From IMG/VR virus record IMGVR_UViG_2703718769_000006: DNA of 18,463 bases, one strand, 5' to 3'. Source of the stretch: a virus (lineage: Duplodnaviria; Heunggongvirae; Uroviricota; Caudoviricetes). The notes below the pieces were generated by a model. The model saw only the letters and a program-made list of their open reading frames with translations, was not told the DNA's origin and did not search any database. The stretch's first letter is position 1, and the number at the start of each line of letters is the position of its first letter. Of this stretch, positions 6,410-17,819 are shown one piece after another. Both the position numbers and the translations under genes were made by a program.

Positions 6410-6670
6410 ATGTGCCATCTGGTCATTTTCGGCGCATTGCTTACTGCAATATTGCCGCTCTTCGGTTACGGGGATTGTGCCTTTCATAAAATGAAGATGA
6501 CTTTTAACGGATTTGGTTTGTTCGGTTTCCTTATTGCAGAGATGGTAGGCACATTTTATTTTTACATTTATCACCATGACTCCGCTTTTACAGGTAAACC
6601 ATCACGTCCGAGGAAGACTTTAATCATGCAATCGGTAATGCATGTTTTTGTCGTGAAGTTACGAATATAG
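6410..6670 (+). CDS. Putative small membrane protein with two hydrophobic helices
   Basis: ORF 6377..6670; an internal Met at 6410 ([20 protein letters not shown]…[21 protein letters not shown]) gives two hydrophobic segments. Plus strand, divergent from the 128-aa gene and overlapping the 3' end of the minus ORF 6571..6792. Confidence 0.3.
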
Positions 6671-6792
6671 AGTTTTCTCTTTTCAATATTGTTTGCTGAA
6701 GCGATATATGTCCGCCCTTCATGAAGAACATAATCGCCAGGTGTCACGCACTGACGTGGTATTTCATCAGTTCTGAAGTGATGAGCAATCAT
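6571..6792 (-). CDS. Hypothetical protein (about 73 aa)
   Basis: ORF 6571..6810; the Met at 6792 is preceded by GGAG with a 6-nt spacer. In the pL-operon orientation. Confidence 0.35.
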
Positions 6793-6965
6793 AATTATCT
6801 CCATTTTCACAAATGAACTTTGTTGATGCGGTGCCTGGTGCCTCCAGGTGACGTTAACCAGTTAACAATTAACGCCGGGTCAGGGGACGATGACTTTCCG
6901 TGACATCCTGTCGGTTTAACTGTTCCGCGTGCGCTGAGCCGCATTCACCGCATCACAAAATTCAC

Positions 6966-7011
6966 TTTAAAAAAGGGCGGATATCAGCCAGCAATTAAAC
7001 TGATATCCGCC
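6966..7011 (-). terminator. Strong rho-independent terminator, possibly the 3' end of a small RNA
   Basis: Perfect 12-bp inverted repeat GGCGGATATCAG…CTGATATCCGCC (6976-6987 / 7000-7011) followed on the minus strand by UUUUUU. Sits inside a 440-bp stretch with no minus-strand ORF (6811-7252). Confidence 0.55.
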
Positions 7012-7165
7012 AATGACTACACACAGCAATGTTGTTATTCACAACCGGAAGCGCACGGTCGAAGAAATCTAACGACAAGCCTTCAAAGGGAAAGAGTCTT
7101 CGCCGTGCGCTTTCGTGTTGCACCCTGGCTTTTCAGGGTAATATCTGTTCAGTAAACTGACAGTG

Positions 7166-7194
7166 CCGGATGCTCACCCGTGTCCGGCGCACGA
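7166..7194 (+). promoter_or_regulatory. Conserved leader element, copy A
   Basis: CCGGATGCTCACCCGTGTCCGGCGCACGA; 27 of 29 positions match the reverse complement of 15775-15803. It ends exactly 58 nt upstream of the ATG at 7253 and is followed by the hairpin CTCCAC-N7-GTGGAG. Confidence 0.5.
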
Positions 7195-7252
7195 ACTCCA
7201 CCTGACCCGTGGAGAACTCCTCAACTACAAACCCCGTAAGGAGAGTGAATTT

Positions 7253-7462
7253 ATGACACAAGAAGAAAAAGTGATGTTTCTGATGCGGCTGGCTGTCGAT
7301 ACCTACAACACACAATTCAGGGAGAAAGATATACCTCAAAAGGCAGTTCCTGCCGCGGTAGATAAGGGCGGTGCTATTGCCGTATTTTACGATGCATTTG
7401 AATCATTTTTTGATGAAAAACTCGATGCTGTTAGCGACTTCGGAACATCGAGTAATAAATAA
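7253..7462 (+). CDS. Small hypothetical protein A (69 aa), antisense to the pL operon
   Basis: Strong SD AAGGAGAG 7 nt before the ATG at 7253 (ORF track 7163..7462). Product MTQEEKVMFLMRLAVDTYNTQFREKD… Overlaps the 3' end of the convergent minus ORF by about 32 nt. Confidence 0.5.
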   Translation: MTQEEKVMFLMRLAVDTYNTQFREKDIPQKAVPAAVDKGGAIAVFYDAFESFFDEKLDAVSDFGTSSNK

Positions 7463-7790
7463 CGTTCATTACGGTTCTTAAACAACAATCAGTGGGCTTG
7501 ATGTTGTTCTTTTCAAGCTCACTTGCCATCACTTCCATTATTCTTGCGCTTACACGAATTATTTGGTGGCTGTAAGCGACGCAACTGTCGCTGATATTGC
7601 TGTTTATTTCTATTACTTCATTTTCACCATTAGCATCAACTTCGGATGCGCTGTTTTCATTATCCTGTTTCAGTGCTTTTTCTGCCATCTGGATGCGTGT
7701 CAGCGTTGCGGAATTTGGGCTAAGTCGATAAACCTGTTTGGCATCTTCCAGAAGCAGGGCGATAATGTGCTTCAGTTCTGTTTCGTTCAT
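7431..7790 (-). CDS. Hypothetical protein (about 119 aa)
   Basis: ORF 7431..7811; the Met at 7790 has GGAG 6 nt upstream. Lies 31 nt downstream of the 238-aa gene, suggesting an operon. Confidence 0.5.
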   Translation of the reverse strand: MNETELKHIIALLLEDAKQVYRLSPNSATLTRIQMAEKALKQDNENSASEVDANGENEVIEINSNISDSCVAYSHQIIRVSARIMEVMASELEKNNIKPTDCCLRTVMNVIYYSMFRSR

Positions 7791-11696: not shown

Positions 11697-11760
11697 TATT
11701 CAGGCAGGGCATGGAGCAATACACGGGAATAATTCTGCCACATCTGGAAGAATTTCGCCA

Positions 11761-11916
11761 GCAACAACACCAACCGCAGCAGCCTGAAGCCGATTGGGTT
11801 AACCCGGAGATACCGGGACCGTCTGTGAAGATGTGCAGTCACACCAATGTGCAGTCACACCAACCGCAGCAGCCTGAAGCCGATTGGGTTAACCCGGGAG
11901 ATACCGGGACCGTCTG
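11761..11916. repeat. Two tandem copies of an approximately 60-bp repeat upstream of the O-like gene
   Basis: Copy A 11767-11826 and copy B 11857-11916: ACACCAACCGCAGCAGCCTGAAGCCGATTGGGTTAACCCGG(G)AGATACCGGGACCGTCTG. Each carries the dyads GGGTTAACCC and CCCGG-N5/6-CCGGG. The short tandem GTGCAGTCACACCAA occurs twice between them. Confidence 0.85.
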
Positions 11917-11949
11917 CGGTATGGAGTAAATCTTGTATGCGAGGGGACT

Positions 11950-13032
11950 ATGCGTAATTACGCAACAATTTCACCTCAGTTCTGGTTAGGCGATACAGGG
12001 CGAAAACTAAGGAAGTCTGGTCCGGAATGTATGGTAGTGGCGTTGTATATGATGACCTCGCCTCATTCCAATATGCTGGGCCTTTATTACCTGCCTGTTT
12101 TGTACATTGCTCACGAAACCGGACTTGATCCTGAAGGGGCTTCTAAGGGGCTTCAAATGGCTTGCGAGGCTGGTTTTTGCAGCTATGACCATGATTCTGA
12201 GGTTGTATGGGTGCATGAAATGGCAGCATGGCAGGTTGGTGAATCGCTGAAACCTGGCGATAACCGTTGTGCTGGGGTAAGAAATGAATATTCCGCGTTG
12301 CTGGAAAATCCTTTTTTATCATCATTTTATGATAGATATAAGGATGATTTCCACCTGGATGTCAGACGTGAATCATGTCGGAAAATTGAAGCCCCTTCAG
12401 AGCCCCTTTCAAGCCAAGAACAGGAACAGGAACAGGAACAGGAAAGAGATAAAACCCTTCTGGTCCATGGCGAAAAAATCGCCACGGACCCACTGGTGGA
12501 TTCTTGTCCCGTTCTGACTGAACGTCCAGGACCAGCTGGCATGACACCGGAAGCAGATTCCGGGCGTTGTGTGCAGCAGGTGCTGCTCGTCGAACCGGAG
12601 CAACAACACCAACCGCAGCAGCCTGAAGCCGATTCCGCGATGAGCGGGAAGCCGATTGGGTTAACCCGGGCGATGCCGGGACCGTCTGCGGGACGAGTTG
12701 ATTATCCTGACGTGTTCGAACGGGTCTGGCGTGAATATCCGCATCGGGCAGGGTCAAACCCGAAGAAATCCGCGTTCAATGCCTGGAGGGCCAGATTACG
12801 CGAAGGGGTGTCACCGGATGTCGTGCTGGATGGCGTGAGGCGTTACGCAAGATACCTGGAGGCTACCGGGAAAGCGGGAACTGAATTTGTTCAGCAGGCA
12901 TCGACGTTTTTTGGCCCGAACAGGAATTTCGAAAATCCGTGGTCGCTGCCGAAGGCTGGCGCAGTCAGCCTGCGTTGCGTGAATCACATTTCTGAACCGG
13001 ACACCGAAATTCCGCCGGGTTTCAGGGGGTAA
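11950..13032 (+). CDS. Replication initiator (O-like replisome organiser)
   Basis: 360-aa ORF directly upstream of a DnaC-like loader gene. Its central linker has low-complexity SQEQEQEQEQER and a third copy of the repeat. Function is assigned by position and architecture, not by a recognised motif. Confidence 0.65.
   Translation: MRNYATISPQFWLGDTGRKLRKSGPECMVVALYMMTSPHSNMLGLYYLPVLYIAHETGLDPEGASKGLQMACEAGFCSYDHDSEVVWVHEMAAWQVGESLKPGDNRCAGVRNEYSALLENPFLSSFYDRYKDDFHLDVRRESCRKIEAPSEPLSSQEQEQEQEQERDKTLLVHGEKIATDPLVDSCPVLTERPGPAGMTPEADSGRCVQQVLLVEPEQQHQPQQPEADSAMSGKPIGLTRAMPGPSAGRVDYPDVFERVWREYPHRAGSNPKKSAFNAWRARLREGVSPDVVLDGVRRYARYLEATGKAGTEFVQQASTFFGPNRNFENPWSLPKAGAVSLRCVNHISEPDTEIPPGFRG
12415..12444 (+). 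repeat. (CAGGAA)n hexanucleotide tandem repeat inside the O-like gene
   Basis: caagaa followed by four perfect caggaa units, encoding the EQ-repeat linker. Confidence 0.9.
12606..12691. repeat. Third, interrupted copy of the 60-bp repeat, inside the O-like coding sequence
   Basis: ACACCAACCGCAGCAGCCTGAAGCCGATT-[ccgcgatgagcgggaagccgatt]-GGGTTAACCCGGGCGATGCCGGGACCGTCTGCGG; the same unit as 11767-11826 with an internal duplication of GAAGCCGATT. Confidence 0.85.
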
Positions 13033-15033: not shown

Positions 15034-15045
15034 CAGGAGCTAAAC

Positions 15046-15546
15046 ATGCATTTGAATAAAGAGCATCAATCCATGATGGGCAAGCGCCAGACAGAAGAGG
15101 CTGTTCGCGATCTGGAAAAACTACTTGGCTATCGTGAAACAAAACTGCTTTTCCTGGTTCCGGTTATTCGCCAGAAGGTTGAGGAAATTCTTGAAGAAAA
15201 TGGCATCCCGAAAGAATACATGACGGATGCCATGGAATATTCACTCGAACTGGTACGAATTACTCCTGATCTGACCTGGCTTGATGAGTATCAACAACAA
15301 TTTGAGAAAGGCGCAGAAACGTTACTTTCTGCTGCTGATAAAACAGAGCAGAAAACAGAACCATCGGTATTCTGGAATACCGTTGAGGCTATTGCCAGGA
15401 GCAAGATATTTGAGTTTAACAACATCAATCATTCCGGGAGAGACACTCATCAATCATCACATCTTGAGGGGGTGTCCATGCTTCTAGCTCTGTTGCGAGA
15501 GCAAGGCGAATGTCCTCAGTCGACATTGAACGACACTGAGCAATAG
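15046..15546 (+). CDS. Hypothetical protein (166 aa); 3' end uncertain
   Basis: ORF follows the previous gene by 12 nt. Its last 120 nt overlap the convergent 96-aa ORF, so one of the two C-termini may be wrong. Confidence 0.45.
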   Translation: MHLNKEHQSMMGKRQTEEAVRDLEKLLGYRETKLLFLVPVIRQKVEEILEENGIPKEYMTDAMEYSLELVRITPDLTWLDEYQQQFEKGAETLLSAADKTEQKTEPSVFWNTVEAIARSKIFEFNNINHSGRDTHQSSHLEGVSMLLALLREQGECPQSTLNDTEQ

Positions 15547-15715
15547 TCCATCCGTATTTTCCGGCAAGATAAAGATATATTGCGTCAAAGCCATAAATAG
15601 TCCTTGGATACCCCTCTTTAATAGCCAGAGAGTCCCCGAAGCATTCAAGAAAGTAATTTGAGCGGGCTGTTTCGTAATGAAAATTCCAGCGAGCCTGATT
15701 GAGTTTTTTGTCCAT
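15425..15715 (-). CDS. Small hypothetical protein B (96 aa), antisense to the pR operon
   Basis: ATG at 15715 preceded by GGAGGATAA. The conserved leader element lies exactly 58 nt upstream, as at gene A. Confidence 0.5.
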   Translation of the reverse strand: MDKKLNQARWNFHYETARSNYFLECFGDSLAIKEGYPRTIYGFDAIYLYLAGKYGWTIAQCRSMSTEDIRLALATELEAWTPPQDVMIDECLSRND

Positions 15716-15774
15716 TTATCCTCCATTGTTGCTCTGTTTTGAAAAATGGAGACCTTCACGCTGCAACGTGAGGT

Positions 15775-15803
15775 CGTGCGCCGGACACGGGTAAACATCC
15801 GGT
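15775..15803 (-). promoter_or_regulatory. Conserved leader element, copy B
   Basis: Minus strand reads CCGGATGTTTACCCGTGTCCGGCGCACGA (27 of 29 positions match 7166-7194), followed by the hairpin CCTCACG-N6-CGTGAAGG, then 58 nt to the ATG of protein B. Confidence 0.5.
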
Positions 15804-15848
15804 ATTCAAAATTTAATGTTAACGAATTTTTAATATTGAGGTTATGAC

Positions 15849-16106
15849 GTGAACAACAAAATCAATATTCCTCTCGAAATTAAAGAAATTAACGAAATCA
15901 TTGAGGTTACTGATCGCCCCGAGTTTACCCTCATGCACCGTTATGAAACGGGAACCGACGAGCAAAAATACATCATGGTTGCAGCATTGGCTGTGATGGC
16001 GATAGAAAGGGAGCGGAGGGAAAAGGACGTAATGGTTATTCCGGCGAGAAATGATTCACCGGATTTGAGATGGCAGGAGCCGGAGTGGGATGTGGCAATC
16101 CGGTGA
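15849..16106 (+). CDS. Hypothetical protein (85 aa), GTG start
   Basis: GTG at 15849 with TTGAGG 7 nt upstream and TAATAT (15831-15836) as a candidate -10. Divergent from protein B. Confidence 0.45.
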   Translation: MNNKINIPLEIKEINEIIEVTDRPEFTLMHRYETGTDEQKYIMVAALAVMAIERERREKDVMVIPARNDSPDLRWQEPEWDVAIR

Positions 16107-16156: not shown

Positions 16157-16525
16157 TTACGCAGCTTTACCCAGCGTAAAATCAAAGTGGATGTCGTCAT
16201 ACGGAAAAGATGTTCCATTTTCTCCTTTTTCCAGGAGGCCGTTGCTAATCAGTGCGGTTACATCCGTGTGTACGGCTTTTACGTCACGCCCGACCAGAGC
16301 GGCAATCTCACGGATTGACAGTTCTCCGGCACCAGTCATCGCCATGAGTATGTCCATGCGCTTAGGGGTAAGCACTTTATGCATCATTTGCCAGTCTGGG
16401 AATGAAACGATGCTTTCGTTCTTTGACGTCATTCCTTCGGCAACCGCTTTAAAGGCAGACAACACATCTGCCGTGAAAGCATCCATTGATTCAATACGTA
16501 TTGTAACTGTTTTCATATCAGGCAC
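16157..16525 (-). CDS. Predicted HTH DNA-binding protein (122 aa), second gene of a two-gene operon
   Basis: Segment MDILMAMTGAGELSIREIAALVGRDVKAVHTDVTALISNGLLEK resembles a winged HTH. Its start overlaps the upstream ORF stop by 8 nt. Confidence 0.65.
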   Translation of the reverse strand: MPDMKTVTIRIESMDAFTADVLSAFKAVAEGMTSKNESIVSFPDWQMMHKVLTPKRMDILMAMTGAGELSIREIAALVGRDVKAVHTDVTALISNGLLEKGENGTSFPYDDIHFDFTLGKAA

Positions 16526-16805
16526 CTCTGCGAATGGATTCTACATCATGGAGGAAGTCAGCAATGAGTTGCTCGATGGAAACAAAGTGGGTACTGATTT
16601 CCTGAGCACCAATGTGTTTGTGGTCGCCTTTACCTCTTTCGTTGTCGTAGCGCATGACGCAAACACCATCAACAACGTAAGCCATGCTGTATTTGAAGTT
16701 ATGGCGGCTACCAAGAACGGCTGGAGCCACCTCCCAGATTTTAATCCTTATGTATTCGGATTCCCCAAGATGGCGAATGAACTCTTTATACAGTTTGGAT
16801 GGCAT
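16518..16805 (-). CDS. Small protein (95 aa), first gene of the operon; toxin-like partner candidate
   Basis: ATG at 16805 with GGAG 5 nt upstream; a sigma70-like promoter (TTGACA-17-TATCCT on the minus strand) lies immediately upstream. No catalytic motif recognised. Confidence 0.6.
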   Translation of the reverse strand: MPSKLYKEFIRHLGESEYIRIKIWEVAPAVLGSRHNFKYSMAYVVDGVCVMRYDNERGKGDHKHIGAQEISTHFVSIEQLIADFLHDVESIRRGA

Positions 16806-16893: not shown

Positions 16894-16969
16894 ACTTATC
16901 CGGGATTATATTCTTCGCACGGTCGAGTTGGCCGTCGGGATTGGAACCCCGGATAGAGACCGCGACAAA

Positions 16970-16995
16970 CACACGCCGCGAGCGTGTTTTTTATT
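16970..16995 (+). terminator. Rho-independent terminator inside the leader upstream of the antirepressor gene
   Basis: ACACGC-CGCGA-GCGTGT followed by TTTTTTATT on the plus strand, about 75 nt downstream of the predicted plus-strand start site and 160 nt upstream of the ATG at 17154. Confidence 0.55.
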
Positions 16996-17153
16996 GTCGT
17001 ATGCACGCGCACATCTGAATTATGGTGGGGCGCATGGGGGAGCTGAAAAGCTCGCCGGTCGGTTTCCCGGTAGTTCCAACCCTGTGCGTCTCACCACCCG
17101 ATGATTGGAACCTTACGGTGGTGATAGTTTAGAAACCACTAGAGGGCGTCATT

Positions 17154-17819
17154 ATGACAACTCAAATCTCTGTTGAAACCATCTCCCCGATTACCCATAA
17201 CCAGATTCCTGTTATTACCACCGAGCTTTTGGCACAACTTTATGGCACCGAAACTAATAACATCAAAGTGAACTATACACGCAATGCCGAGCGTTTTGTT
17301 TGTGGGAAACACTACTTCAAATTGGAAGGGGCTGGATTGCGGGAATTTAAGAATAAGGTTACTCAAAGTAACTTAGTTGCACCGCGTACAAAGCACCTCA
17401 TCCTTTGGACAGAACGCGGGGCAGCCCGTCACGCAAAAATGCTCGAAACTGATCAGGCATGGGAAGTGTTCGAAAAACTGGAAGACTGCTATTTCAGCCA
17501 GGGAAAAACAACACAAACCGAACAGCAGCCGCAGATTCAGCCGCAATTCACAGCAGAAGACATCATCCTACTCTGCTACGTTCAACTCTGGATGGAAAAA
17601 GCACAACAACTCAGTAAGCAGCTATACCCCGTCATGAGAGAACTGAACTCTGATTACTACGGGAAACTGTTTGATCTGGCCTACGAGACTCGTCATATAA
17701 CCAACCGGACTCGCGACACATTGCTCCGCGAAGCAGCAAAACTTGATCCCGCCAACTATATGGTGCATAGGGCCAGAAGCATGCTGGCGCAACTACGGGC
17801 AAGACAATTTGAATTCTGA
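17154..17819 (+). CDS. Phage antirepressor-like protein (ORF6N/Bro-N-type N-terminal domain)
   Basis: N-terminal region …IPVITTELLAQLYGTETNNIKVNYTRNAERFVCGKHYFKLEGAGLREFKN…LILWTERGAARHAKMLETDQAWEVFEKLED is the characteristic ORF6N antirepressor domain pattern. SD AGAGGG 7 nt upstream. Confidence 0.8.
   Translation: MTTQISVETISPITHNQIPVITTELLAQLYGTETNNIKVNYTRNAERFVCGKHYFKLEGAGLREFKNKVTQSNLVAPRTKHLILWTERGAARHAKMLETDQAWEVFEKLEDCYFSQGKTTQTEQQPQIQPQFTAEDIILLCYVQLWMEKAQQLSKQLYPVMRELNSDYYGKLFDLAYETRHITNRTRDTLLREAAKLDPANYMVHRARSMLAQLRARQFEF

Follow-up and report, generated by a model that had tools for sequence, protein, structure and literature searches.

We analysed an 18,463-nt stretch of Caudoviricetes DNA (IMG/VR record IMGVR_UViG_2703718769_000006; hereafter the window), which is almost identical to Escherichia phage phiSTEC1589-Stx1c (PQ600364) except in the immunity region and is lambdoid in its gene layout. 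The minus strand carries int, exo/bet/gam and a RecE-like gene, then a dicB-like gene, a DicF-like sRNA, N and cI. The plus strand carries cro/cII, O, a DnaC-like P, a YdaW-like gene and a DUF977/Ren-like gene before reaching the region that concerns us here, beyond which lie a TumE/HVO_A0114 toxin-antitoxin pair (minus strand), isrK and C4 RNAs, an antirepressor and NinB. Some details of these surroundings may be recorded in their own right. The DicF-like sRNA has a terminator stem and T-run and scores only 35.6 bits (gathering threshold 48), and the dicB-like ORF downstream of it (6571–6810) is named "cell division protein FtsZ" in PQ600364, apparently a mis-annotation. The isrK (54.9 bits) and C4 antisense RNA (71 bits) matches at 16919–17101 (plus strand) both exceed the Rfam gathering threshold and sit directly 5' of the antirepressor gene (17154–17819); a match to the c4-a1b1 target site at 16906–16955 is weak. 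Direct repeats of 36–49 nt (AGCAACAACACCAACCGCAGCAGCCTGAAGCCGATTGGGTTAACCCGGG...) at 11760–11919 and 12599–12691 are common to the O-like gene and a 72-aa ORF upstream of it, and may be iteron-like or a partial duplication.

A repeat finder returned one long inverted pair, which joins 7150–7220 to 15748–15818 (71 nt, 72% complementary, 8527 nt apart). It contains a 29-nt core, CCGGATGYTYACCCGTGTCCGGCGCACGA, that occurs exactly twice in the window, without mismatch, at 7166–7194 (plus) and 15774–15802 (minus); no match appeared in 200 shuffled sequences and none is expected by chance. The well-matched stretch between the two copies, A and B, is only ~45 nt, and in both the start codon of a small ORF lies 87 nt past the first C of the core. 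N, cI, cro, cII, O and P are all bracketed by the two copies, in agreement with the initial annotation, which had described inverted copies flanking the whole immunity-replication module. The features of the two loci are as follows.

6975–7025, minus: DicF-like sRNA with terminator, on the strand opposite to the element and its usual upstream neighbour
7153–7158, plus: putative −10-like hexamer TAAACT of copy A
7164–7252, plus: copy A of the leader (covariance model, 92.5 bits)
7165–7188 and 7195–7213, plus: hairpins 1 and 2 of copy A, followed on the same strand by an anti-Shine-Dalgarno (anti-SD) segment CUCCU paired with the Shine-Dalgarno sequence (SD) AAGGAG
7253–7462, plus: gene A, 69 aa (phrog_2605), overlapping the convergent ORF at 7431–7790 (minus) by 32 nt
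15034–15865: variable slot between the DUF977/Ren-like gene and the 85-aa gene, holding ORF166 and the gene-B cassette
15046–15546, plus: ORF166, a 166-aa chimera; residues 3–90 match a domain that stops there in phi367, residues 94–166 are antisense of the gene-B cassette
15425–15715, minus: gene B, a 96-aa uncharacterised all-helical protein (homologues and AF2 model), with its ATG at 15713–15715
15716–15802, minus: copy B of the leader (covariance model, 51.9 bits, E 3.9e-13)
15720–15727, minus: SD of copy B, AAUGGAGG
15745–15752, minus: anti-SD of copy B, UCUCCAUU
15751–15775, minus: hairpin 2 of copy B, GACCUCACGU/GCGUG-A-AGGUC
15781–15802, minus: hairpin 1 of copy B, CCGGAUG/UGUCCGG, with tandem U-G/G-U pairs
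15810–15815, minus: putative −10-like hexamer TAAATT of copy B, ending 7 nt upstream of the core
15849–16106, plus: 85-aa backbone gene (phrog_8371), GTG start behind GAGG

These coordinates largely bear out the gene-level description given initially: the overlap of gene A with its convergent neighbour is the 32 nt expected, that of gene B with the 3' end of ORF166 measures 122 nt (15425–15546, both stop codons counted), and the divergent 85-aa ORF with a GTG at 15849 is present. The start of gene A needs correction, its ATG lying at 7253 and not 7254.

Structure of the element

The element had been suggested to precede gene B as a leader, and its spacing bears this out. The ORFs found downstream of it are 69–96 aa long and fall into at least nine unrelated families, genes A and B included, yet all of them start 81–87 nt after the first C of the core. 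Four of these families form PHROGs of their own, of unknown function; neither gene B nor the other cassette ORFs matched Pfam or PADLOC (anti-phage defence), the only matches being to function-unknown PHROGs. A type I toxin-antitoxin identity was rejected because the cassette ORFs encode soluble helical proteins rather than short hydrophobic peptides.

Folding distinguishes the two strands. At copy A the gene-bearing strand folds far better than shuffled sequences (z −3.9), an excess missing from the opposite strand (z −0.2); the difference is weaker at copy B (z −1.6 versus −1.0). When RNAalifold was applied to nine ORF-bearing leaders it returned three helices: hairpin 1 (GCCGGAUGC/GUGUCCGGC), hairpin 2 (CUCCAC/GUGGAG) and a pairing of CUCCU with the AGGAG of the SD. 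The tandem U-G/G-U pairs of hairpin 1, a helix fixed by the search pattern used to collect the loci, are invariant and become C-A/A-C mismatches on the other strand, and all four one-sided helix substitutions keep wobble pairing on the leader strand. In copy B both hairpin 2 and the anti-SD/SD pair have a different sequence, with pairing retained at the same positions. Among 43 unique sequences from the DicF side, the arms of hairpin 2 show 0.5–0.67 variants per position versus 3.57 in its loop. Within the aligned family, whose sequences are ~96% identical, no two-sided compensatory change was seen at any base pair, and two singleton variants disrupt hairpin 2 on the leader strand and form wobble pairs on the opposite one.

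The −10-like hexamer varies little, with 0.33 variants per position in TAAACT versus 2.47 in the 17-nt spacer (same 43 sequences). The corresponding position reads TAAATT at copy B and TAAGCT in P13374 and phi367, and the sequence farther upstream is unrelated. A consensus scan detected no sigma-70 promoter at copy A or copy B, and no −35 is conserved across upstream contexts. Scans for intrinsic terminators flagged none at either copy, where hairpins 1 and 2 lack a U-tract, and no terminator-like site 3' of gene B. A cmscan of the whole window (E ≤ 1) matched no Rfam family at 7150–7253 or 15716–15818, its only hits being C4, isrK, DicF, STnc100 and c4-a1b1.

Taken together, the anatomy and distribution of the element give good support to its reading as a leader. 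Since two-sided changes are absent, hairpin 1 is fixed by the search, two singletons break hairpin 2, and the promoter and terminator scans were negative, we infer its transcription rather than observe it.

Other identities fared less well. A nut/put-type antitermination RNA was rejected, the folding strand being antisense to early transcription; its position also speaks against it, kilobases away from cI/cro (~4.8 kb for copy B) and downstream of N. A tiny ORF across the core on the early-sense strand was rejected because its frame is not the same in copies A and B. Pairing of either leader with the local sRNAs (DicF-like, isrK, C4) was no better than with shuffled sequences (z −0.9 to +0.7).

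A separate observation concerns a palindrome, ACCCTGGCTTTTCAGGGT, at 7122–7139, which overlaps the putative −35 of copy A. In relatives its arms change from CCCTGA/TCAGGG to CTCTGA/TCAGAG, a compensatory change, and a T-G wobble occurs on the plus strand. Its minus-strand reading, CCCUGAAAAG, is reminiscent of lambda boxB.

Gene B, ORF166 and the 85-aa gene

An exhaustive phmmer search recovered gene-B homologues from 133 representative clusters (E ≤ 1e-3), mostly ~90–105 aa long and aligned over nearly the full length; a word-indexed search returned no more than six E. coli clusters, nearly identical and in part frameshifted, and frameshifts affect several gene-B sequences in public assemblies. 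Alignment of 60 members yields the signature YxLExFGDxLA...G.EAI..YL..KH.W.P..VR.MS..DL...L.EEM..W..P., and its nearly invariant positions include W56, L73 and E76, within the ORF166 overlap. The AF2 model has a pLDDT of 94.3, and neither Pfam nor PDB gave a match. In a Stenotrophomonas prophage, a homologue lies opposite the early-left genes and next to an S24 repressor. The full gene-B cassette occurs in 11 of 5426 E. coli genomes, and gene B is not annotated in any GenBank or RefSeq record examined. Judged by this conservation, gene B is a genuine, so far unannotated protein gene, whose translation is for now a prediction.

ORF166 is of composite origin. Its residues 3–90 share 68% identity with residues 90–183 of a phi367 ORF of 187 aa, whose end follows four residues after the matching segment, and its residues 94–150 share 88% identity with the C-terminus of P13374 ORF16, a protein unrelated to it over the N-terminal 74 residues. 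Among the tblastn matches listed, the whole 166 aa was found only in the source phage, and nearly all of the other 61 phage records match residues 79/94–166 only. In these tail-matching phages gene B lacks its N-terminal half, hairpin 2 is cut, and the ORF166-like tail lies opposite the gene-B remnant. Relatives with a truncated gene and no overlap, named initially as telling against the pairing of the two genes, were thus found in part: gene B is N-terminally deleted in P13374-type phages.

We counted substitutions in the block shared with these relatives. The ORF166 frame has 5–8 synonymous versus 10–21 non-synonymous changes, one of which is a stop in P13374, and the remnant gene-B frame has 2–6 versus 8–11; both frames are therefore near neutral in the lineage of the window and the P13374-type phages. 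We found no sign of a functional antiparallel pair, as the ORF166 tail is not under purifying selection; the gene-B frame is conserved at the level of the family. Moreover, an overlap of 11–122 nt with the convergent neighbour is seen for each of the nine cassette ORFs examined, and antisense read-on is therefore general. The initial proposal of a specific overlapping gene pair does not survive these results: the overlap is a by-product of cassette insertion and not a designed arrangement, and comparison with relatives indicates that the last ~72 codons of ORF166 (nt ~15324–15546) are part of the cassette and not of the gene.

Similar proteins occur elsewhere. P13374 ORF16 (locus L002, 2780–3175) and phrog_1363-type "hypothetical proteins" in ~60 other Stx phages among the matches listed end in ~57 residues antisense to a truncated gene-B remnant, and these annotations probably over-extend the real gene.

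The 85-aa gene, initially taken as a divergent partner of the element, is found without it in POCJ13, 75/02 Stx and PhiR5_2. In POCJ13 and PhiR5_2, homology to the window sets in at ~15866 (codon 6 of this gene), so that its first six codons and SD belong to the replaced segment. In both phages the slot at 15034–15865 holds a 224-aa minus-strand gene instead. On the other side, a TumE toxin (16518–16805) and its HVO_A0114-family DNA-binding partner (16157–16525, minus) form a toxin-antitoxin pair antisense to the PR operon; POCJ13 and PhiR5_2 have HigB/HigA there (16157–16805), which makes this a second variable antisense slot beside that of gene B. The 85-aa gene is a backbone gene between two variable, antisense-oriented slots and no partner of the element.

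Distribution and junctions of the element

A pattern scan of IMG/VR gave at least 120 loci with the element. It is carried by E. coli/Shigella prophages and, by BLAST against phages, by lambdoid and Stx phages of the same two hosts, usually once per genome. When one genome per species was scanned, the main-class hairpin 2 and anti-SD were found outside E. coli/Shigella only in one probably contaminated MAG; with the element so confined, covariation cannot be compared across genera. The MAG contig in question ("Collinsella sp.", JAIIUG010000151.1, 2.5 kb; our locus L129) gave the top score of the E. coli-derived model, at 364–427, most likely through bin contamination. A covariance-model search of 53 loci (605 kb) found no diverged or second copies beyond those already known.

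The conserved block extends from ~17 nt upstream of CCGG to the anti-SD segment at ~+50 to +60. From there two continuations are seen: CUCAGGAGGGUGAA-AUG and an ORF, or, immediately, the 3' end of the convergent gene (the "empty" form). Among the loci listed, 72 of 121 are empty, having neither SD nor ORF after the element, and ~40% have both. As the core is still conserved in empty loci, it may have a function beyond that of a leader. In most loci the element has dicF within ~150–350 nt. E. coli K-12 carries the empty form in its Qin prophage, between ydfC and dicF and on the strand opposite to dicF (locus L124, 2569–2632, minus). Copy B lies apart from dicF, as do the P13374-type copies, and what the core accompanies is the downstream ORF, not dicF (copy B, P13374, phi367); cassettes do, as had been suggested for comparison, travel with the element.

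The stretch from ydfC to dicF has been described as a long untranslated region of the dicBF operon, and an antisense element is absent from these descriptions (PMC5069750, PMC9438474). In a 2023 paper on dicBF regulation, "ydfC", "terminator" and "Rho" do not occur and "antisense" occurs in the reference list only. A catalogue of K-12 small-RNA sequencing has no entry at or near the Qin copy (PMC3175480), and a full-text literature search for the core sequence gave no match.

At two loci, L014 (upstream of 857) and L039 (upstream of 5389), a co-directional ORF, zinc-ribbon-like in L014, replaces dicF upstream of the element. These contexts are rarer and their −10-like hexamer is degraded (TTAAAG); the leader may there be transcribed by read-through.

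Both edges of the element are mosaic junctions, with about five unrelated contexts upstream and more than ten downstream. The flanks combine freely: one upstream class (U2) is seen next to five different downstream classes, and three upstream classes share the empty downstream class (D2). Phages phi367 and P13374 have their upstream flank in common and diverge from the loop of hairpin 1 onward, which places a breakpoint inside the core. The gene-B block lies in the left arm in ~60 Stx phages among the matches listed and in the right arm here, in each case against early transcription. The initial annotation had raised the alternative that the two inverted copies are recombination or module-exchange sites and had pointed to module junctions in related prophages as the place to look. 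The junctions are indeed there, at both edges; the inverted pair is another matter. PhiR5_2 has copy A (95.5% identity) and lacks copy B, phage records with the element usually carry it in one place (BLAST), and the 53 loci held no second copies. The pair is therefore specific to this phage lineage and, with a single copy in most relatives, not a conserved architecture, so that the module-junction idea is right for the element as a class and not for the pair in this window.

A proposed leader for interchangeable cassettes and its alternatives

We propose that the element is the 5' leader, probably with a promoter, of interchangeable prophage accessory-gene cassettes that always face early (PL or PR) transcription, and we consider this account probable. 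Transcription would start ~1–7 nt before CCGG, downstream of the conserved TAAAYT hexamer, so that the RNA would open with a G-C- and G-U-rich stem-loop. Structures of this type at the 5' end protect E. coli mRNAs from decay, and hairpin 1 may have such a stabilising role. A second stem-loop would be followed by a CUCC(U/A)U segment pairing with the SD or start region, which could control translation, and then by the start codon 81–87 nt from the core; copy B would in this way front gene B and copy A the unrelated gene A. The early ORF coming from the other side would run on into the antisense of the cassette, giving ORF166 its 72-codon passenger tail, and the overlaps of 11–122 nt would arise because cassette and early gene converge without a spacer. 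Finally, the nearly invariant core of ~45–65 nt could double as a homology patch for the exchange of flanks, which would account for the different positions of gene-B cassettes, left-arm in some phages and right-arm in this one.

Three rival readings were weighed. The prevalence of empty loci, K-12 Qin included, with the core kept at high identity, would fit a stand-alone cis-antisense RNA, the ORFs being optional passengers. Such an RNA would act on the 3' end of ydfC and the DicF precursor in the left arm, and on ORF166 and replication-side genes in the right arm, modulating early or dicBF expression through RNA duplexes or transcriptional interference; that the element always faces the early transcript, that every cassette overlaps the convergent gene and that dicF is close by in most loci all suit this idea. 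We nevertheless regard it as unlikely, because no terminator follows the core in empty forms, or gene B, the K-12 catalogue has no sRNA at the Qin copy, neither copy B nor the P13374-type copies have dicF nearby, and a conserved SD and fixed ATG distance before nine ORF families favour an mRNA leader. If instead the opposite strand were the functional one, the element would belong to early transcripts, for example as a processing, pause or termination structure in the ydfC 3'UTR upstream of DicF, and the antisense ORFs would be coincidental. In most loci the reverse complement does lie within the ydfC–dicF untranslated region, which is known to be processed (PMC5069750, PMC9438474), and the two singleton hairpin-2 variants are wobble-compatible on that strand only. 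That strand, however, folds no better than shuffled sequences at either copy, turns the tandem U-G/G-U pairs of hairpin 1 into mismatches and does not carry the conserved SD and ATG, and the core moves with its downstream ORF to sites without dicF; we find this quite improbable.

The mosaic edges, the combinatorial flanks, the breakpoint within the core and the two locations of the gene-B cassette would also be expected of a pure recombination linker, kept as a homology patch or specific site with no role in expression, whose inverted copies could invert or swap the immunity-replication block. To this we give little credence: most relatives have a single copy (PhiR5_2 has copy A only), the copies in the window share only ~45 well-matched nt, no recombinase is associated with the element, and conserved helix arms around a variable loop, together with the fixed SD and ATG distance, point to a role in expression. 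A bolder reading is that the two-hairpin core of ~64 nt is an undescribed structured RNA module with its own function, and that new prophage genes have time and again taken it over for their expression. The function of the core may then be, for example, that of a cis-antisense regulator of dicBF or early transcripts, or of a platform for host-factor binding; we think this a rather doubtful extension.

The proposed cassettes and their leader recall several known systems. Morons, a concept due to Hendrix and Juhala, are extra genes with their own promoter and terminator inserted between lambdoid backbone genes. Like them, cassette ORFs occupy a given backbone slot in some relatives only, others having nothing or a different gene there: the slot at 15034–15865 differs in POCJ13 and PhiR5_2, and at least nine alternative ORFs, or nothing, follow the leader. 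Morons are also transcribed independently of the phage operons, as the cassettes would be, here against them, and their functions are unknown or lysogen-related. Unlike morons, many unrelated cassettes have one nearly identical leader in common, set at a constant interval from the start codon; the scans revealed neither a canonical promoter nor a terminator, and the cassettes always overlap a convergent backbone gene. Cis-antisense RNAs of the lambda OOP and anti-Q type are non-coding and have terminators. They resemble the putative transcript of the element in being short, convergent with an early operon and overlapping the 3' end of an early gene, and differ from it in that the element has an SD and ORF at ~40% of the loci listed and no terminator was found.

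PeSL (promoter-early stem-loop) cassettes of lytic T4-type phages have strong sigma-70 promoters and terminator stem-loops in many copies per genome; the motifs flank ORFan genes in hyperplastic regions, where recombination between PeSLs shuffles modules (PMC2839356, PMC4122927). The element, too, has interchangeable ORFs behind it and a junction at each edge. However, consensus scans did not find at the element the strong early sigma-70 promoter and terminator stem-loop that define PeSLs: it has only a weak promoter-like hexamer, stem-loops without a U-tract and a leader that would occlude the SD, and it occurs in one or two copies in temperate lambdoid prophages. The untranslated region of the Qin dicBF operon is the exact site of the commonest (empty) form in K-12. 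Its described features, DicF and processing by RNase E and RNase III, belong to the strand opposite to the element (PMC5069750, PMC9438474), and copy B and the P13374-type copies have no linkage to dicF.

If the leader account is correct, one short sequence marks a hot spot of experimentation with new small genes in E. coli, Shigella and Stx prophages, the genes all facing lytic transcription. Searching for it would be an easy way to locate accessory genes that annotation has missed; gene B and several other cassette ORFs are absent from the GenBank and RefSeq records examined. It would also correct mis-annotated chimeric ORFs, namely ORF166 and the ORF16/phrog_1363 proteins in ~60 Stx phages among the matches listed. 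Convergent transcription combined with an occluded ribosome-binding site would make a testable candidate for the shut-off of lysogen-specific genes in lytic growth. In K-12, a conserved and so far unstudied element lies opposite the ydfC–dicF untranslated region, and if the core has an RNA function of its own, the empty Qin copy would be an unannotated regulatory RNA gene in the best-studied bacterium.
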